In this document: positions 5,213 through 49,177 of the stretch, one piece after another
How positions within the stretch are numbered: position 1 is the stretch's first letter
Layout of the letters: every line of letters starts with the position of its first letter
Assembly: GCA_964624795.1 (NCBI GenBank)
Contig: CAZUZS010000001.1
Coordinates: 57,260-121,259 of the forward strand
Origin: an uncultured Calditrichaceae bacterium
GTDB taxonomy: Bacteria > Calditrichota > Calditrichia > RBG-13-44-9
Length of the DNA stretch: 64,000 nt
Direction of reading: 5' to 3'
Notes under the pieces: model-generated
Databases searched by the model: none
Seen by the model: only the letters and a program-made list of their open reading frames with translations
What the model was told of the DNA's origin: nothing
Program-made: the position numbers and the translations under genes

Positions 5213-6850
5213 CTATTTTTCTCCAAGCGGTTCCCACAGTCCATATGATTCGATTTTTATCTGCACCTGCGGATCGGTTTTATAGGTTTCGTAGGAATTA
5301 TAGTACCATCCCATATATTGGGAATCTCCGCCACCCTGGGTAGTAATCAGAAAACGATTGGAAAGGTGCCCGATGTTCATCGCGCGGTCGCGCGGCAGGG
5401 GTTTGTCGCCGCCTTGCGGGTCAATGGGAATCCAGCCGTAGTTCGGGAGATAAACTTCCGGCCAGCGATGAAAAACATCATCCATGCTGGCGTCATCTCC
5501 CCGTACCACAATACTGCCTACATAGCGGGCCGGCAGGCCGGCTGCCCGGCACAGTGCAATAAAACTAAAGGTATATTCCGAACAGGATCCGGTCCCTCGT
5601 TTCAAAACTACAGGCGCTACGTTCCAGCCGCCCTCCAGTTTGTATTCCAGTTTATCTCTTACATAATCAAAGATCTTGCGGGCAACCCAGTAAGGATTTT
5701 GTTCATCCCCGACAATCTTCTTTGCTAAATCCTGAATGTACGGATCGTCGATCTGGTATTTGCTGCCGTTGGCAGTAAACGTCTTCTGTATGTCACCGGG
5801 CATATCAGCAAGCGTACCGCATTTATCGGGAAAAATAAAATATTTGATCTCGGAGATTTTCGCATCTACTACCATTCGTGATGTGATTGCAGCTTCGCTT
5901 TGGATACCCGCAGAATGGAAATGTGCAAATTGCTGCCCCCAGCGGTCTTTTACGGTGGTAAAATTCTCCGGAATGAATTTCTTCGATAGGATTTCCTGCT
6001 GATTTAAATTTTCAGGAATGGAGATGTAAACATCCAGGTCCTTCAACCGGCCGGACCCGTAAATTTGGGTTTCGTGGGTAAAGGTAATCCGCGCGGTCCG
6101 GGTATTATCCAATTTGAACAAATCATTATCGCTGCGAACCAGTTGGTAAATCTCACCTTTTTCAAAATCCACATTCCAGATGGTTTTGCCATCCCAGGCC
6201 AATCCGCGGGGATAAGGACCCGGCGAGTCGAGCACCAGGATAACCTCCCCGTTGCCGGGATCGATCATATAGATCTCATTCATGATGCGGTCCGAGCACC
6301 ACAAATACCGGCCATCCCAGGTAAGCCCCTGTGCATATTTGGCAGGCGCCGAAAATGTTTGGATTGCAGTTCCATCGCTCAAATCGATTTTCATGATCTC
6401 ATTTGCGCGATAATCGCTGACCCACAGCGTCTTCCCATCCCAAGTCAATCCCTCTGCATTGGAGCTCGGCGAGTCTATCACTCTTAGAATCGTTCCGTCC
6501 GCCGGATCAACCTGGAAGATCTTGTTCTGCCTGCCGTCAATATTCCAGAGATATTTCCCGTCCCAGGCTAAACCCATCGGCCAGAATCCGGGGGACGGTA
6601 TTTCCCGGACTACTTTTCCGGTCGCCGGATTCACACAGGAGATCTTATCAGCCTGGTAATCGGCGGTCCACAGGTTACGCCCATCAAATGTCAGCCCGGT
6701 TGAAAAATGATAGGGTGTCTGGATACTGCGAATTATTTTGCCTGGATAGGCAAAAACCACAGTTGATATTCCCAGAACGAGAAAGAAAATCAGTTTCTGA
6801 ATTTTAAGCATGACAGCTCTCCTTCTAACAAATGTGTTACTCAAATCCAA
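5213..6850 (-). CDS. Secreted glutaminyl-cyclase-like beta-propeller repeat protein fused to a C-terminal transglutaminase-like cysteine-protease domain
   Basis: Signal peptide, then at least six repeats of 'GL(T/A)WDG+xLW..D.....I..ID...G'. The C-terminus 'GTGSCSEYTFSFIALCRAAGLPARYV...' is a transglutaminase-core motif with a catalytic Cys. Confidence 0.6.
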   Translation of the reverse strand: MDLSNTFVRRRAVMLKIQKLIFFLVLGISTVVFAYPGKIIRSIQTPYHFSTGLTFDGRNLWTADYQADKISCVNPATGKVVREIPSPGFWPMGLAWDGKYLWNIDGRQNKIFQVDPADGTILRVIDSPSSNAEGLTWDGKTLWVSDYRANEIMKIDLSDGTAIQTFSAPAKYAQGLTWDGRYLWCSDRIMNEIYMIDPGNGEVILVLDSPGPYPRGLAWDGKTIWNVDFEKGEIYQLVRSDNDLFKLDNTRTARITFTHETQIYGSGRLKDLDVYISIPENLNQQEILSKKFIPENFTTVKDRWGQQFAHFHSAGIQSEAAITSRMVVDAKISEIKYFIFPDKCGTLADMPGDIQKTFTANGSKYQIDDPYIQDLAKKIVGDEQNPYWVARKIFDYVRDKLEYKLEGGWNVAPVVLKRGTGSCSEYTFSFIALCRAAGLPARYVGSIVVRGDDASMDDVFHRWPEVYLPNYGWIPIDPQGGDKPLPRDRAMNIGHLSNRFLITTQGGGDSQYMGWYYNSYETYKTDPQVQIKIESYGLWEPLGEK

Positions 6851-7186
6851 ACCGGCGTTAAGTCAATTTTCGGAGTTGGTCAATCAAAATATCCAAGAAC
6901 AGGTTTTTCTTGTTTTTATTTTTTGCATCCTGCGGCGTCCGGGACGTTGCATTCTGCTCTCCGGGGAAGAAATGGAATTCTCCGGCTTTCATAAAATGTG
7001 GCGCATGTATTGACCGCTCTTCATGCAATGCAGCATCTGAATTCTTATCAACAGAATCCCGCGGCCACTTTGATATTCATTTTCGTCAGGCGGGCCAGAC
7101 AATAAAAATAGTTGATTCGGGCAAATCCATAGCTGAGAGGAGGGCTGCACAGGCATCCAAATGCGGATTTAAATGCCGCGAGATAT

Positions 7187-7930
7187 TTAATCTTCTTCTT
7201 TCCCCATATTTGCTTCGTCCATAAGGCGAAGCGCTTCCAATAAAATGTTCATAGTTGAACCATTGATGTTTGGCGTAATCTTGGCTTCCAACGGTTCAAA
7301 TTTGAACAAGCCATCACTTAAAGCCACCAACCTGTTGATTGCCTCGACTCCCTCCTCTTTGCCCGCGGTCGCAAAAATAATATTGCCTTGTTTGAATACA
7401 ATTTTGCCCGTAACGATCGAGGTAATTTCCAGCGTTCCGTTGCGTTTATTCTGATTCAGCAACTGGATAACTTCCGCAAGACTGAGATCCGCCAGGTTGC
7501 CTTCGAAGCCTTTTACCTGAGCGGTCGTTTCGCTGTCCATTGCCCTCACCCGTTTGGCCCGGTTTAATAGCGTTTCCACCTTGGCGAGCAGCACGTTGCG
7601 GTCCACCGGTTTTACCAGGTACTCATCGGCGCCGGCACGAAAGCCCCGTATTTCCATGTCACGATCTTCAAGGCTGGTGAGAAAAATGAAAGGCACCATA
7701 GGCGTGGCAGAGTTTTCCCGTATCATCCAGCAGAATTCAATACCGTCGGTCTGGGGCATCATCACATCCGAGATAATGAGATCCGGCTGGATTTTATTAA
7801 CCACCTCCAGACCTTCATCCCCGTTCTCGGCGGAATGAATCTCGTAGCCGGCCTTTTCGAGGCTGATCCGCAGCAGTTTCAGAACATGCGGATTATCGTC
7901 TACAATCACTATTATGTCTTTATCAGCCAT
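7187..7930 (-). CDS. Response regulator: receiver domain plus DUF4388 domain
   Basis: 'IVIVDDNPHVLKLL...DLIISDVMMP' is a receiver with a phospho-acceptor Asp. The C-terminal 'GNLADLSLAEVIQLLNQNKRNGTLEI...IVFKQGNIIFA' is DUF4388-like. Confidence 0.7.
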   Translation of the reverse strand: MADKDIIVIVDDNPHVLKLLRISLEKAGYEIHSAENGDEGLEVVNKIQPDLIISDVMMPQTDGIEFCWMIRENSATPMVPFIFLTSLEDRDMEIRGFRAGADEYLVKPVDRNVLLAKVETLLNRAKRVRAMDSETTAQVKGFEGNLADLSLAEVIQLLNQNKRNGTLEITSIVTGKIVFKQGNIIFATAGKEEGVEAINRLVALSDGLFKFEPLEAKITPNINGSTMNILLEALRLMDEANMGKEED

Positions 7931-38697: not shown

Positions 38698-38771
38698 TGC
38701 GCCTGCCAGGAGTCGAACCCGGAACCTCCTGATCCGTAGTCAGGCGTTCTGTCCAATTGAACTACAGGCGC
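38698..38771 (-). tRNA. tRNA-Arg (anticodon ACG)
   Basis: Reverse complement folds as a cloverleaf: acceptor GCGCCTG/CAGGCGC, D-arm GTTC..GAAC, anticodon stem CCTGA/TCAGG with loop CTACGGA, T-arm CCGGG-TTCGACT-CCTGG. No encoded CCA. Confidence 0.85.
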
Positions 38772-46200: not shown

Positions 46201-46349
46201 AAGGGTGGTTTTGGAACAGCCGCTTTTGAATTCCGGTGTTTTTCGCGGCGACGAAAGTAAATATAATCCAGCGAGCATATTTCCTGATGCCGGCGCTGCG
46301 TGCAAGTTGCCAGGTTCCAGCAATTCCTACCACCGAACACTAAACAATT

Positions 46350-46391
46350 AAGACAGATTCCTCTCCCTGTGCAGGAAAAGGAATCTGTCTT
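46350..46391 (-). terminator. Hairpin, candidate terminator for the 527-aa gene (possibly bidirectional with degP)
   Basis: 13-bp stem aagacagattcct/aggaatctgtctt with an internal cctg/cagg sub-stem; followed on the minus strand by 'aattgtttagtgtt'. Confidence 0.45.
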
Positions 46392-46504
46392 CATGACCTC
46401 GCCACGAGCCGTATGAGTAAACTTCCGCTGAGTAATATCTAACCTCCCGATTTTGCATCACTTAAAATAATAATTAATGCCATTTATTCCGGCAGGCACC
46501 CCAT

Positions 46505-48088
46505 CTACCTTTTCGATCCTCCCAGGCAATAATAACAGTTGTCATACCCAGCGGCATGTGCCTGATCGAGGAAATAGAACGGAACCCGGTTTTGAGACAG
46601 GATTTTATTGACCCACGTGCAGTCCGCTTTATGAACTTCCAGGCTGGCGCGATTCTTATTCCCGATTAGCGGTGCATCGCAGTAGTTTTCCAACCCGCCC
46701 AGTGCGAACCGCGTTTTGACTATCGCGGCATCAGCATCTGACGAGACCCGGGTAGCGCTTTCGGAAACAGTCAACTCGGTCCCGGGAAGTTTTGCAGTAA
46801 ACATGGGAGGTGATAAAAGAAACGGAGGCAGGGTTTTGATTATTGCGGAGGCAATATGCTGTTCCACCTGCATTCTCATTTTTTCCTTCAATTCCGGTGA
46901 ATCAATATAATCCGGTAACAGCAGAGTTCCCGGAACATAAAACGTCCATTCATCAATTTGGGGAACCAGGCAGCGATCATTTCCGAGCACCAGCCGTCCT
47001 TTTCCTTCATAATCGTATATCCTTAGATCGATGGGAAATGGTGGGAGTGGTTTGGTATGCCGGACCCAATTGGGCTTAAACCACTTCTCAATATATTGGA
47101 TGCTGATTATTAGCATTACATTTACCCGAACCGATCCCTGCAGCTCGATTTGATTCTGGTTTTTGAGAATAAATGTTGGTCTGGAATAAGTAACGGTGGT
47201 TTCAGTATCCAGAATCAGGGCTTCGAAATCAAATAGTTGACTCATAATCGCTGAAAATATCCACTCAATTCCGGGAACCAGGATGGCAAACACTGTTAAA
47301 AGAAAATCGACCCATTTGTCTATCAGTCCGATGATGGTGTTAACCGAGCGGTTCTTTATTGTCTGGCTTTCCCCAACCTTCTTGTGTGCCCACCAAAAAT
47401 TATATACATCTTGCATAGCAGTGCTTTTTATCGCTGTTGCGATATCCATTCCGCCAGAGAAATTATCGAATTCCGGTTGGCTGCCGCTGCACGGTTTCAG
47501 GATGGAAAATCCGCCGGCGAGAATTCCATCCGGGCCGCCGGATGCACACGGTACGATCTGCAAATTCTGGCTGGCATCGGGCAAGTGCAGATCATGCAAA
47601 ACAGTAGTAATATCGAATGGCGCTCCGTTCTTCGCAAAATAGTCGCAGAGTATGAAATCTAAAATCTCAGCTAATTTTTGCTTCATTTTTTCCGGCAGCG
47701 AGCTAGCGGTGACCGTCGTGGTGACGTTTGCTTTTTGCAGCTCCATCACAAGCTGGCGGGATGAAAGATCATAAGTAACAGGGCTTTTTACACTGAATGT
47801 TGCCTTCAAATCAGATTCAATTTCACCCAGGTAGGTTAAAGAAACATTGGCTGTTATTTTCACCGATAGGCTGTTGGATTCTGCTGCCTTGTAAACCGGG
47901 ACCTGGAACGTGATTTTATAATCAAGAGAAGTGAACTCACTCCATGGCTCGGGCACCTGCAGAAATGGAAATTTGTAAACACCGGCTAATTCGTGCGGAA
48001 ATTTGTTCATATAATATGCTGCAAAAAGCAATTTGTTAATAAACGTCGCACTTACCTCGGATACCAGGTCGTATGCAATCGTATTCAT
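46505..48088 (-). CDS. Hypothetical 527-aa protein with an uncharacterised N-terminal region and a C-terminal Ada-type Zn-binding domain
   Basis: 'HKADC..NRVPFYFLDQAHAAGYDNCYYC' aligns with Ada 'C..ENVSFYANASEALAAGFRPCKRC'. No signal peptide. One hydrophobic stretch 'FLLTVFAILVPGIEWIFSAI'. Confidence 0.6.
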   Translation of the reverse strand: MNTIAYDLVSEVSATFINKLLFAAYYMNKFPHELAGVYKFPFLQVPEPWSEFTSLDYKITFQVPVYKAAESNSLSVKITANVSLTYLGEIESDLKATFSVKSPVTYDLSSRQLVMELQKANVTTTVTASSLPEKMKQKLAEILDFILCDYFAKNGAPFDITTVLHDLHLPDASQNLQIVPCASGGPDGILAGGFSILKPCSGSQPEFDNFSGGMDIATAIKSTAMQDVYNFWWAHKKVGESQTIKNRSVNTIIGLIDKWVDFLLTVFAILVPGIEWIFSAIMSQLFDFEALILDTETTVTYSRPTFILKNQNQIELQGSVRVNVMLIISIQYIEKWFKPNWVRHTKPLPPFPIDLRIYDYEGKGRLVLGNDRCLVPQIDEWTFYVPGTLLLPDYIDSPELKEKMRMQVEQHIASAIIKTLPPFLLSPPMFTAKLPGTELTVSESATRVSSDADAAIVKTRFALGGLENYCDAPLIGNKNRASLEVHKADCTWVNKILSQNRVPFYFLDQAHAAGYDNCYYCLGGSKR

Positions 48089-48099
48089 TCTATCCCCCT

Positions 48100-48468
48100 T
48101 TATAAAAAGTTGATTTCAGATTCGCCGCTCTCCCTGTCTATTTTGACCTTGATTTTTGTCCACTTTCCGCCTTTTGGCAGTTCCGGTTCCTTTTTTTGCC
48201 TGGATACTCGTTTCTGCATACTTTTCGCCAGTTTCTTCCGAGCCTCCGTCCTCATTTTCTCTCTGAATTGCTCGGTAATGTAGTAGCCCTGCGAAGTTGC
48301 TGCCTGCATAAAATCTTTCTGAAGCGACTCGGAAAATTTTTGATCCTTCCCGGCAAGTTCCATCAGCCGGGTTAATTCCCGGCGCGTTAACGGTTTTGTC
48401 TTTGACTGATGATGCTTTTGATTTCTTTTCATAGTGATCTCCTTCGTGCGTTTTAATTGACCCAACAA
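48100..48468 (-). CDS. Small basic protein with an N-terminal Nif11-like domain and a Lys/Arg-rich tail
   Basis: 'LTRRELTRLMELAGKDQKFSESLQKD...AATSQGYYITEQF' follows the Nif11-domain pattern. Tail 'RKKLAKSMQKRVSRQKKE...KWTKIKVKI'. Lies 11 bp upstream of the 527-aa gene. Confidence 0.45.
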   Translation of the reverse strand: MLGQLKRTKEITMKRNQKHHQSKTKPLTRRELTRLMELAGKDQKFSESLQKDFMQAATSQGYYITEQFREKMRTEARKKLAKSMQKRVSRQKKEPELPKGGKWTKIKVKIDRESGESEINFL

Positions 48469-49108
48469 ATGACAAAATCAGGTAGGAATTCCTAATTCCG
48501 GCCGAATTATTGGCTCCTCCAAATTAGTAAGCAACGGTTGAAAACGTTGGACCCAGGCAATTGGTGCAACATGCAATTTCGGAAAGTTGATATCGCCCTG
48601 CCCGGCAATTGCCAGGGTGATCATTCATAATGGGAATGAAAGGCCATCGTGCAAGAAAAATGATAATGTTAATGCTTTAGACGCGAATGGGCAGAGTGTG
48701 AATTCGATTATATGGAGTAGGCGTACAGAGATTCCCGCTTTTCTGATGCGGATTTAATTAAGTGACTAATAGAAAAGCAAAAAGCATGGGGTCGCTATTT
48801 TTAAGTTAATGCGCAAATAATTCCTCCTGAAATTTAATTGACTTATCTTTTATATATAGCCAACAAATCTCATCTTGGTGAATTATTTTTCACACGACGC
48901 AATATAAGAAAAAATAATTAAAATGCAATAGAAATTGCCGGGATGGTAGAAAAAGTTTTATTATTATTTGAATGAATAAATTGTCCGCTGGCGGGGAATT
49001 CGCTCAGATTCATGCTATTGAATATAATTTTCCCTGCAAGCCAATTTGGACAGACAATTTATCTGCATAAGAAAACCGATACAAAAAACATGTCGGGCAC
49101 ACCAATTG

Positions 49109-49148
49109 GCACCAAATAAAATGCCCCCTTCACAATATCAAAGGGGGC
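49109..49148 (-). terminator. Rho-independent terminator of tpiA
   Basis: Hairpin gccccctt/aagggggc at 49123-49148, then a T-run on the minus strand ('attttatttggt'). Confidence 0.75.
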
Positions 49149-49177
49149 GAAAATCTTGCGACGGCTTTCTTCCTGCA

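Follow-up and report, generated by a model that had tools for sequence, protein, structure and literature searches.

What is the function of a tight pair of genes that stands between degP and a glycolytic operon, and whose products pass no family threshold? The pair lies on the minus strand of a 64,000-nucleotide stretch (hereafter the window) of contig CAZUZS010000001.1, positions 57,260 to 121,259, from an uncultured Calditrichaceae bacterium (assembly GCA_964624795.1). A preliminary description had recorded a 527-residue protein with a C-terminal Ada-type zinc ribbon and, next to it, a small basic Nif11-like protein. It had offered three readings: a nucleic-acid-targeting effector with a basic partner, a leader of a ribosomally made, post-translationally modified peptide (RiPP) with its modifying enzyme, or a defence or toxin module. 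We propose, with moderate confidence, that the module is a two-component lipid-handling system, made up of a leaderless protein with a predicted double-TULIP fold and a small adapter that would act on it in trans.

Fold, family and zinc domain of the large protein

The large gene and the parts of its product are as follows:

46505-48088, minus strand: large gene, 527 residues, with a predicted double-TULIP (BPI-like) body and a C-terminal ADA_N-like zinc domain
47426-48088, minus strand: predicted N-terminal TULIP lobe, residues ~1-221, from model secondary structure and fold matches (strand 8-13, helix A 14-26, long strands 54-127, helix B 133-154, central-sheet strands 178-221)
46694-47425, minus strand: predicted C-terminal TULIP lobe, residues ~222-465, from alignment, model and fold matches (helix A' 222-235, long strands 286-384, helix B' 398-418, central-sheet strands 440-464)
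47231-47314, minus strand: hydrophobic helix-Pro/Gly-helix hairpin, ~W259-F286, from hydropathy, model and columns ~430-470 of alignment A1
46508-46651, minus strand: ADA_N-like ('sunset') zinc domain, residues ~480-527, with ligands H486, C490, C518 and C521

No family had been recognised in the roughly 480 N-terminal residues of the large protein. An AlphaFold model calculated from an alignment of 22 sequences (predicted local distance difference test, pLDDT, 86; predicted template modelling score, pTM, 0.78) gives this region a fold, with helix, long antiparallel strands and helix occurring twice and extra strands forming a central sheet. Searched with Foldseek against the PDB, the model matches CETP (8.3e-13), BPI (1.1e-12), LBP (3.5e-12), P47 of C. 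botulinum (2.7e-10 and 2.2e-9) and E. coli YceB (1.6e-4). For the crystal structure of TipA, scores of 16.5 against BPI and 13.5-15 against CETP have been reported, which we consider to be the same range as the scores of our model (10.1101/2025.09.09.675085). On the evidence of this model, residues 1-465 very probably form a BPI-like double-TULIP body, so that the region does have recognisable (BPI/CETP/P47-like) relatives at the level of the fold. A single-sequence AF2 model was discarded (pLDDT 35.6), and Foldseek matches to MACPF pore-formers were rejected (probability 0.02-0.07, template modelling score ~0.06). A search of viral folds in BFVD found no viral TULIP relative and matched the zinc domain alone.

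Sequence comparison places the protein outside the described families. Neither the large nor the small protein passes any Pfam, NCBIfam or PADLOC threshold, and PADLOC returned noise only (HerA, E = 0.021; CsaX, E = 0.057). Word-index protein searches, whether started from either protein or from the family alignment, recovered only the queries themselves. Below the cut-offs, the Pfam model DUF1439/YceB matches three of the 22 family members (best E = 0.0012) and LBP_BPI_CETP matches one (E = 0.0026), the P47 and DUF4403 models match none of the 22, and the window protein matches no TULIP model of Pfam. Membership in P47, DUF4403 or LBP_BPI_CETP was rejected, with no hidden Markov model (HMM) score above the gathering cut-off. 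The large protein thus represents a new sequence family inside the TULIP superfamily, one for which neither Pfam nor NCBIfam has a model and whose members are currently annotated as hypothetical proteins.

An exhaustive HMMER scan of 1.84 billion cluster representatives gave 138 matches. About 35-45 of them span the body of the large protein (500-560 residues, 20-38% identity); the remaining matches cover residues ~472-527 only, often as 2-6 tandem copies in unrelated architectures. Scans of genomes and metagenomes used a pattern of the C-terminal motif, so nearly all of their matches share that domain only, and the TULIP body is found at just two of the loci that they returned (L002 and L003). 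A JGI contig (L001) was rejected as evidence of conservation since, at 99.8% identity to the window, it comes from the same strain. Full-length relatives occur in both bacteria and archaea, with a sparse distribution that is patchy across phyla. In the alignment of 22 full-length members (A1), seven residues are invariant (D7, P64, W233, H486, C490, C518 and C521); W233 belongs to a conserved F-W-W motif carried by helix A'.

Two of the more distant relatives stand in settings of their own. In the metagenome-assembled genome of a spore-forming Firmicute (GCA_016841245.1), two tandem paralogs of 538 and 562 residues lie by a gerA operon (L090:5998-9324); both carry the C-terminal His-Cys3 (HCCC) domain without a small partner, and in layout they resemble the orfX/p47 clusters with their several TULIP genes. 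The other relative, P0017 (562 residues), is encoded on an archaeal contig of 230 kb, with Ribosomal_L18A, prefoldin and DNA_primase_S among its neighbours; it is followed by a 365-residue TIR_2-domain gene (L174:4001-6914, arranged alike in L175), the only defence-type neighbour seen. Our results suggest that P0017 is an archaeal BPI-like double-TULIP.

The large protein contains one hydrophobic stretch, as had been noted before, and it can now be placed at ~W259-F286, as an insertion that separates the first strand of the C-terminal lobe from the second. Its 19-residue Kyte-Doolittle mean is 2.06 in the window protein and 2.06-2.58 across P0001 and P0004-P0006; the insertion is present in the closest subfamily only. 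Its two helices (253-270 and 275-285) are modelled with lower pLDDT (53-69). As neither arm is long enough to cross a bilayer, we read the hairpin as a candidate re-entrant, membrane-dipping element, and the order of secondary-structure elements would put it at the tip of the C-terminal lobe.

The N-terminus is conserved from residue 1 (M-x-T-G-G-Y-D, with D7 invariant) and forms the first strand of the fold. The reported lack of a signal peptide holds for the large protein and for its relatives alike: none of the 22 members has a signal peptide or a hydrophobic N-terminal segment, and the maximum 12-residue hydropathy within the first 40 residues is <=1.65. As the large protein is leaderless, it is probably cytoplasmic.

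The C-terminal end of the large protein (...GYDNCYYCLGGSKR) contains the ligand pattern H486-x3-C490 ... C518-x2-C521, which is invariant in all 22 members and in which His replaces the first Cys. The same H-x3-C...C-x2-C pattern is present in 60 proteins that share only the C-terminal domain. Direct comparisons with Ada stay below threshold. The window protein reaches no curated cut-off of PF02805 or NCBIfam; PF02805 matches three of the 22 family domains (best E = 0.011); and in a PDB search with the domain profile the Ada N-domain structures 1adn, 1wpk, 1u8b and 1zgw come out on top at E = 0.22-0.44. Indirect evidence is strong. Among the 60 domain-only proteins, PF02805 matches 25 (best 1.4e-33) and DUF6233 matches 15, while 17 match the NCBIfam Ada equivalog and 10-11 match 'sunset' models, including the ribosomal L17, L20, L4 and S2 variants. 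P0027 contains three stretches that match PF02805, and these fall on its three copies of the H-x3-C...C-x2-C pattern. Alignment of the domain profile with E. coli Ada by hhalign gave 82% probability and recovered both the NRVPFYF/ENVSFYA and the AHAAGYDNCYYC/ALAAGFRPCKRC correspondences; residues 55-75 of the Ada sequence used agree with the alignment from the PDB search. The model has the Ada N-domain fold as well, and its zinc domain superposes on the Ada-DNA complex 1u8b.

The C-terminal domain is therefore ADA_N-like, and the early assignment and its alignment prove essentially right; of the suggested PF02805 check, the window protein itself falls short of the cut-off, but 25 of the 60 intermediates match. 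The methyl acceptor of Ada is, as is well established, Cys38 (He et al. 2005, cited in PMC12353581). In the first half of the domain, where the alignment follows motif spacing, H486 would occupy this position. With a His there, Cys38-type methyl-acceptor chemistry is predicted to be lost from the domain; that it is no methyltransferase had been anticipated from the window sequence, and is borne out by His in 22 of 22 members. For the zinc module, a structural or docking role is the most likely one.

The ~48-residue HCCC subtype that ends in ...GYDNCxYCLGGSKR is a very promiscuous C-terminal module (loci L004-L080 and L091-L170). Its carriers include proteases (M4, S8 and C1), CAP, hemopexin, SNase and kinase proteins and many proteins without a known domain, and it occurs in bacteria, in members of the candidate phyla radiation, in archaea, DPANN and Asgard lineages among them, and in some proteins of phages. 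A hydrophobic N-terminus is found in 14 of the 60 domain-only carriers, most of which lack a signal peptide.

The small partner and its pairing with the large gene

The small gene and its features are as follows:

48100-48432, minus strand: small partner gene, 110 residues plus stop, with its ATG at 48432
48265-48396, minus strand: predicted LigA/NHLP-like helical domain, residues ~13-56, with the pattern PLT..l....kDP.l...l..D.....s.GY.vT (alignment A6)
48103-48171, minus strand: putative C-terminal amphipathic beta-hairpin motif, G-x3-K-I-K-V-K-I-D-r-E-t-G..., from alignment

The two minus-strand reading frames are separated by 11 nt (48089-48099), in agreement with the preliminary description, and a GGGGGA ribosome-binding site (48094-48098) lies 5-10 nt 5' of the large-gene ATG. 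The small reading frame is real, but its length of 122 residues, counted from a TTG start (48100-48468), needs revision. We prefer the 110-residue model because a GAAGGAG ribosome-binding site (48439-48445) precedes the ATG at 48432 and because the NCBI entry for the protein (P0002) is the 110-residue form. The ATG is likely to be the true start and the TTG at 48468 an over-extension.

That the two genes form one unit is borne out by their pairing across homologous loci and by a gene fusion. A homologous small gene lies 0-25 nt 5' of the large gene, on the same strand, at all seven loci of the closer subfamily, counting the window. The six homologs with a partner are P0004, P0005, P0006, P0008, P0009 and P0012; their small genes encode 93-155 residues, and the products align with the window small protein. 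At L002, from a Longimicrobiaceae bacterium, P0010 carries the entire partner in frame ahead of its TULIP N-terminus (BLASTP E = 1e-6). The partner of P0008 (L171:3532-3999; 155 residues, acidic) has two tandem LigA/NHLP-like domains before the C-terminal strand motif. The pair, whose conservation in relatives had been named as a check, is thus kept throughout the closer subfamily; it is absent at four more distant loci, namely P0014, P0015, the archaeal P0017 and the Firmicute P0020, which has a tandem paralog instead. Since these distant members lack the partner, pairing defines a subfamily.

The sequence of the partner predicts a largely helical, NHLP-like protein. A partner profile searched against the PDB finds the nitrile hydratase (NHase) alpha subunit (E = 0.0039-0.03 over 31 columns; NHase residues ~64-98) and an NHLP leader (E = 1.6); the segment that aligns with NHase alpha ~64-98 is 'a.l..k..DPe....L.eD.e..l...GY'. 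NF038399, of the NHLP clan, matches four of nine partners (best E = 0.0013), with 16.9 bits for the window protein against a cut-off of 40 bits, and TIGR03793 (NHLP leader) matches one of nine (E = 0.069). None of the nine partners matches PF07862 (Nif11). The label 'Nif11-like' is therefore probably right at the superfamily level, where the protein would be LigA-like, but wrong at the family level, where NHLP and NHase alpha are closer. In ECOD, NHase alpha and Nif11 fall into one 'LigA-like' group together with LigA and the TglI N-domain, and some members of the group are regulatory or recognition subunits rather than leaders (PMC12353581).

The C-terminal motif is kept in seven of eight partner sequences and in the P0010 fusion, where it stands just before the TULIP N-terminus; its alternating residue pattern points to a strand conformation. 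The description of the small protein as basic is correct for the window copy (isoelectric point, pI, 10.3) but does not extend to the family: among eight partners, five have a pI of ~10 and three of ~4.

Setting of the module in the window and at homologous loci

Two non-coding features flank the module:

46347-46394, minus strand: hairpin between the convergent large gene and degP (-34.5 kcal/mol, z = -4.65; inverted repeat I1)
48433-49177, minus strand: AT-rich spacer 5' of the module (745 nt, GC 0.387 vs 0.484 for the window)

The neighbours of the module are housekeeping genes, as first reported. Downstream and convergent lie genes for DegP (Trypsin_2 and two PDZ domains), Zn_peptidase_2 and a nitroreductase, and upstream lie those for TIM, PGK and GAPDH. 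The hairpin ascribed to the module as its own terminator is real and strong (46347-46394), but a U-run is missing from it, and it is a possible terminator. The AT-rich tract before the module, estimated earlier at roughly 700 bp, corresponds to the 745-nt spacer. A terminator-like site of tpiA with a U-rich tail lies inside this spacer (49123-49148); with this terminator of its own, tpiA does not pass transcription of the glycolytic operon on to the module, whose own promoter presumably sits in the spacer. The spacer contains no Rfam match and no sigma-54 site, and its sigma-70-like sites are weak only.

Support for the idea that the module is an inserted accessory cassette is weak and comes from composition. 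Its GC content at third codon positions (GC3) is ~2.2 standard deviations below that of the genes of the window, a mild deviation, but no integrase or other mobility gene, no convincing flanking repeat, no adjacent tRNA gene and no plasmid or phage match was found. A 16-nt AT-rich imperfect inverted pair (46462-46477 / 48957-48972; 88% complementary) brackets the module and is low in complexity, probably a chance occurrence. The nearest tRNA gene (38698-38771, minus strand), which is the only Rfam match in the 64-kb window, is ~8 kb from the module.

Some neighbours at homologous loci are worth recording. UbiE-type S-adenosylmethionine (SAM) methyltransferase genes lie near family members in two unrelated sets of loci (L171:1421-2233, L172:1074-1988 and L173:3037-3822), which hints weakly at a connection with isoprenoid-quinone or lipid methylation but may be due to chance. 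At the P0006 locus (L085:2363-3406 and 6026-7561), a radical SAM gene stands two genes 5' of the pair and does not recur at other loci. Proteins with Por_Secre_tail domains, which are sorted by the type IX secretion system, are encoded 3' of the same pair and place the carrier of P0006 in the Fibrobacterota-Chlorobiota-Bacteroidota group.

Proposed lipid handling, its alternatives and its significance

The TULIP fold of BPI, LBP, CETP, P47/OrfX, YceB and TipA encloses a hydrophobic lumen for lipids or other hydrophobic molecules. By analogy, the large protein would consist of two tubular lobes, each a helix with a wrapped sheet, joined by the central sheet around a predicted lipid-holding lumen. 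The hairpin W259-F286 may dip into a membrane leaflet and dock the C-terminal lobe there, so that the tube could load or unload lipid, with the zinc module as a structural or docking part. The small protein would be a trans-acting adapter in which a charged helical linker connects a LigA/NHLP-like three-helix domain with an amphipathic beta-hairpin at the C-terminus. Its beta-hairpin could augment or clamp the N-terminal edge of the TULIP sheet and its LigA-like helices could pack on helix A or on the seam; in this way the adapter might gate the lumen, or govern how the tube oligomerises or docks to a membrane, much as TipB acts on TipA. We favour an adapter because a lipid-tube fold is here coupled tightly to a small protein that is sometimes fused to it, and because TipA/TipB provides a precedent: a double-TULIP whose fold is opened by an adapter encoded in the same operon, with a fused form in a planctomycete (10.1101/2025.09.09.675085).

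The closest analogue is accordingly TipA/TipB (bd2538/bd2539) of Bdellovibrio bacteriovorus, likewise a BPI-like double-TULIP and a small adapter in a tight two-gene operon, with the adapter fused in another lineage as in P0010 (10.1101/2025.09.09.675085). The two systems differ in several respects: TipA, which carries a signal peptide, is secreted into prey, in contrast to the present leaderless family; the gene for TipB lies downstream and encodes a C2-like beta-sandwich, whereas the partner gene here lies upstream and its product looks, by sequence, like LigA/NHLP-type helices plus a beta-hairpin; and TipA, as described, has no zinc domain. The module thus appears to be analogous to TipA/TipB with an adapter of unrelated fold.

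The clostridial P47 and OrfX1-3 proteins (6ekt, 5wix, 9arl and 8fbd) are also leaderless prokaryotic TULIPs and occur as tandem paralogs, as at L090. However, they have no sequence-level similarity to our family, and have neither an ADA_N-like domain nor an NHLP-like partner; no neurotoxin or other toxin cluster is near the module. BPI, LBP, CETP and bacterial DUF4403 proteins share the two-lobed architecture with a central sheet and are the best structural matches overall, but they are ~9% identical in sequence, are secreted or periplasmic, and lack both the C-terminal zinc domain and the hydrophobic hairpin insertion. The N-terminal signal peptide or lipobox of extracytoplasmic TULIPs such as YceB, DUF4403 and TipA is absent from our family.

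Both accessory domains also have known counterparts. With other ADA_N-like domains (an ECOD X-group; PF02805; NF051437), the zinc module shares ~48 residues, a ligand spacing of x3 / ~27 / x2 and the helix A-x2-x-G-[YF]-x-x-C-x2-C, as well as the C-terminal placement of most non-Ada members (PMC12353581). It differs in that its first ligand is His rather than Cys, its score is below the Pfam gathering cut-off, and attachment to a TULIP is not among the architectures described there. The partner aligns, with sub-threshold matches, with the region of NHase alpha from which NHLP leaders derive. In LigA and TglI, such domains serve as regulatory or recognition subunits (PMC12353581); a C-terminal beta-hairpin and an association with TULIPs are not described for them, and RiPP machinery is lacking here.

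Membrane attack would be a rather unlikely function of the module. The BPI-like protein would then be released, for example by lysis, and permeabilise or strip the membranes of competitors or hosts, or act on its own membrane as an abortive-infection-type effector, with the small protein as chaperone, antidote or activator. Such a role would fit the top structural matches (BPI, LBP, P47 and OrfX), of which P47 and OrfX are leaderless too (PMC6791001, PMC7020563), and the finding that TipA destabilises membranes (10.1101/2025.09.09.675085). It would also fit the patchy distribution across phyla and the low GC3, as expected for an accessory gene, the TIR_2 gene after one archaeal homolog and the orfX-cluster-like tandem paralogs of the Firmicute. 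However, PADLOC has no match; the flanks in the window contain no toxin, secretion or immunity genes, and none recur at homologous loci; no plasmid or phage copies were found; and the in-frame fusion of the partner would be unusual for a toxin-antitoxin pair. The defence or toxin module of the preliminary description is thus poorly supported, with no consistent defence neighbourhood at homologous loci. Its nucleic-acid-targeting effector fares no better and is distinctly improbable. There, the zinc domain and a Lys/Arg-rich partner would bind DNA or RNA, as a nucleoid or ribosome tether or in alkylation sensing, and the TULIP would be a sensor or scaffold. The Ada N-domain does bind the DNA backbone and the modelled domain superposes on 1u8b, related 'sunset' domains occur on ribosomal L4, L17, L20 and S2 (PMC12353581), and the window partner has a pI of 10.3. 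Yet the basic charge is not conserved (three of eight partners have pI ~4), the net positive charge of the zinc domain, read from its sequence, is small, and Ada-type methyl transfer would be lost at its first ligand, a His. The domain subtype is so promiscuous (proteases, CAP, hemopexin, kinases) that generic docking is equally likely, and the body is not a nuclease fold.

Very improbable, finally, is a RiPP pathway, in which the small protein would be an NHLP/Nif11-type precursor with a ~22-residue C-terminal core after a conserved Gly, and the large protein would modify it, carry it or give immunity. The partner shows consistent similarity to nothing but NHLP-clan models and NHase alpha, its C-terminal segment follows a conserved Gly, which is part of a GG in the window and L085, and L085 has its radical SAM gene. 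Against this, all matches are far below curated cut-offs (16.9 vs 40 bits for NF038399), and neither the surroundings of the module nor the homologous loci contain a PCAT transporter, a cyclodehydratase, a lanthionine synthetase or a radical SAM gene that recurs. Across phyla, the supposed core remains an amphipathic K-I-K-V-K-I-D strand, where variability would be expected, and it lacks the typical richness in Cys, Ser and Thr. Moreover, the whole partner is fused 5' of the TULIP in P0010, the leader-like domain is in tandem in L171, and the TULIP fold is not known to be catalytic (PMC6791001). The RiPP leader of the preliminary description is thus poorly supported.

Several observations also weigh against lipid handling by a TULIP and its adapter. 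The TULIP assignment comes from a predicted structure, and a PDB sequence search found no TULIP chain with either the protein or the family profile. The similarity of the partner to NHLP and NHase alpha is sub-threshold throughout, and since distant members lack the partner, an adapter would not be essential to the function of the fold. Almost all characterised prokaryotic TULIPs are extracytoplasmic or released, and to our knowledge a cytoplasmic role of a TULIP is without precedent; the large protein may instead be released by lysis, as for P47/OrfX. ADA_N-like domains on the C-termini of RplD, Cwp27, ArfC, ComEC and LGFP proteins have no assigned function (PMC12353581).

A bolder form of the lipid-handling proposal, which we consider doubtful, is that the module is the first intracellular prokaryotic double-TULIP lipid shuttle, present in bacteria and archaea. 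In it, a helical LigA/NHLP domain of the RiPP-leader type would have been co-opted as a trans-acting gate of the BPI-like tube, which an Ada-derived His-Cys3 module would attach to a partner that bears phosphodiesters, for instance nucleic acid, the ribosome or lipid head groups. If true, the shuttle would be a new kind of system for transferring lipids or hydrophobic metabolites from membrane to cytoplasm.

The components are known one by one, namely double-TULIPs in bacteria, adapters of TULIPs, C-terminal domains of the ADA_N-like kind and LigA-like domains, and in this sense the module is not categorically new; a literature search did not find the combination of a leaderless double-TULIP, an ADA_N-like zinc domain and an NHLP-like adapter. 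Few prokaryotic TULIPs have been characterised (YceB, P47/OrfX and, very recently, TipA). To these, our family adds (i) a predicted leaderless double-TULIP in several bacterial phyla and on an archaeal contig; (ii) a second, structurally unrelated case of a double-TULIP with a small putative adapter; and (iii) a defined partner context for the ADA_N-like ('sunset') and NHLP/LigA-like domains. If lipid binding and gating by the adapter hold true, the pair would offer a tractable two-protein system for the opening of TULIP tubes and would bear on whether BPI-like proteins predate eukaryotes.

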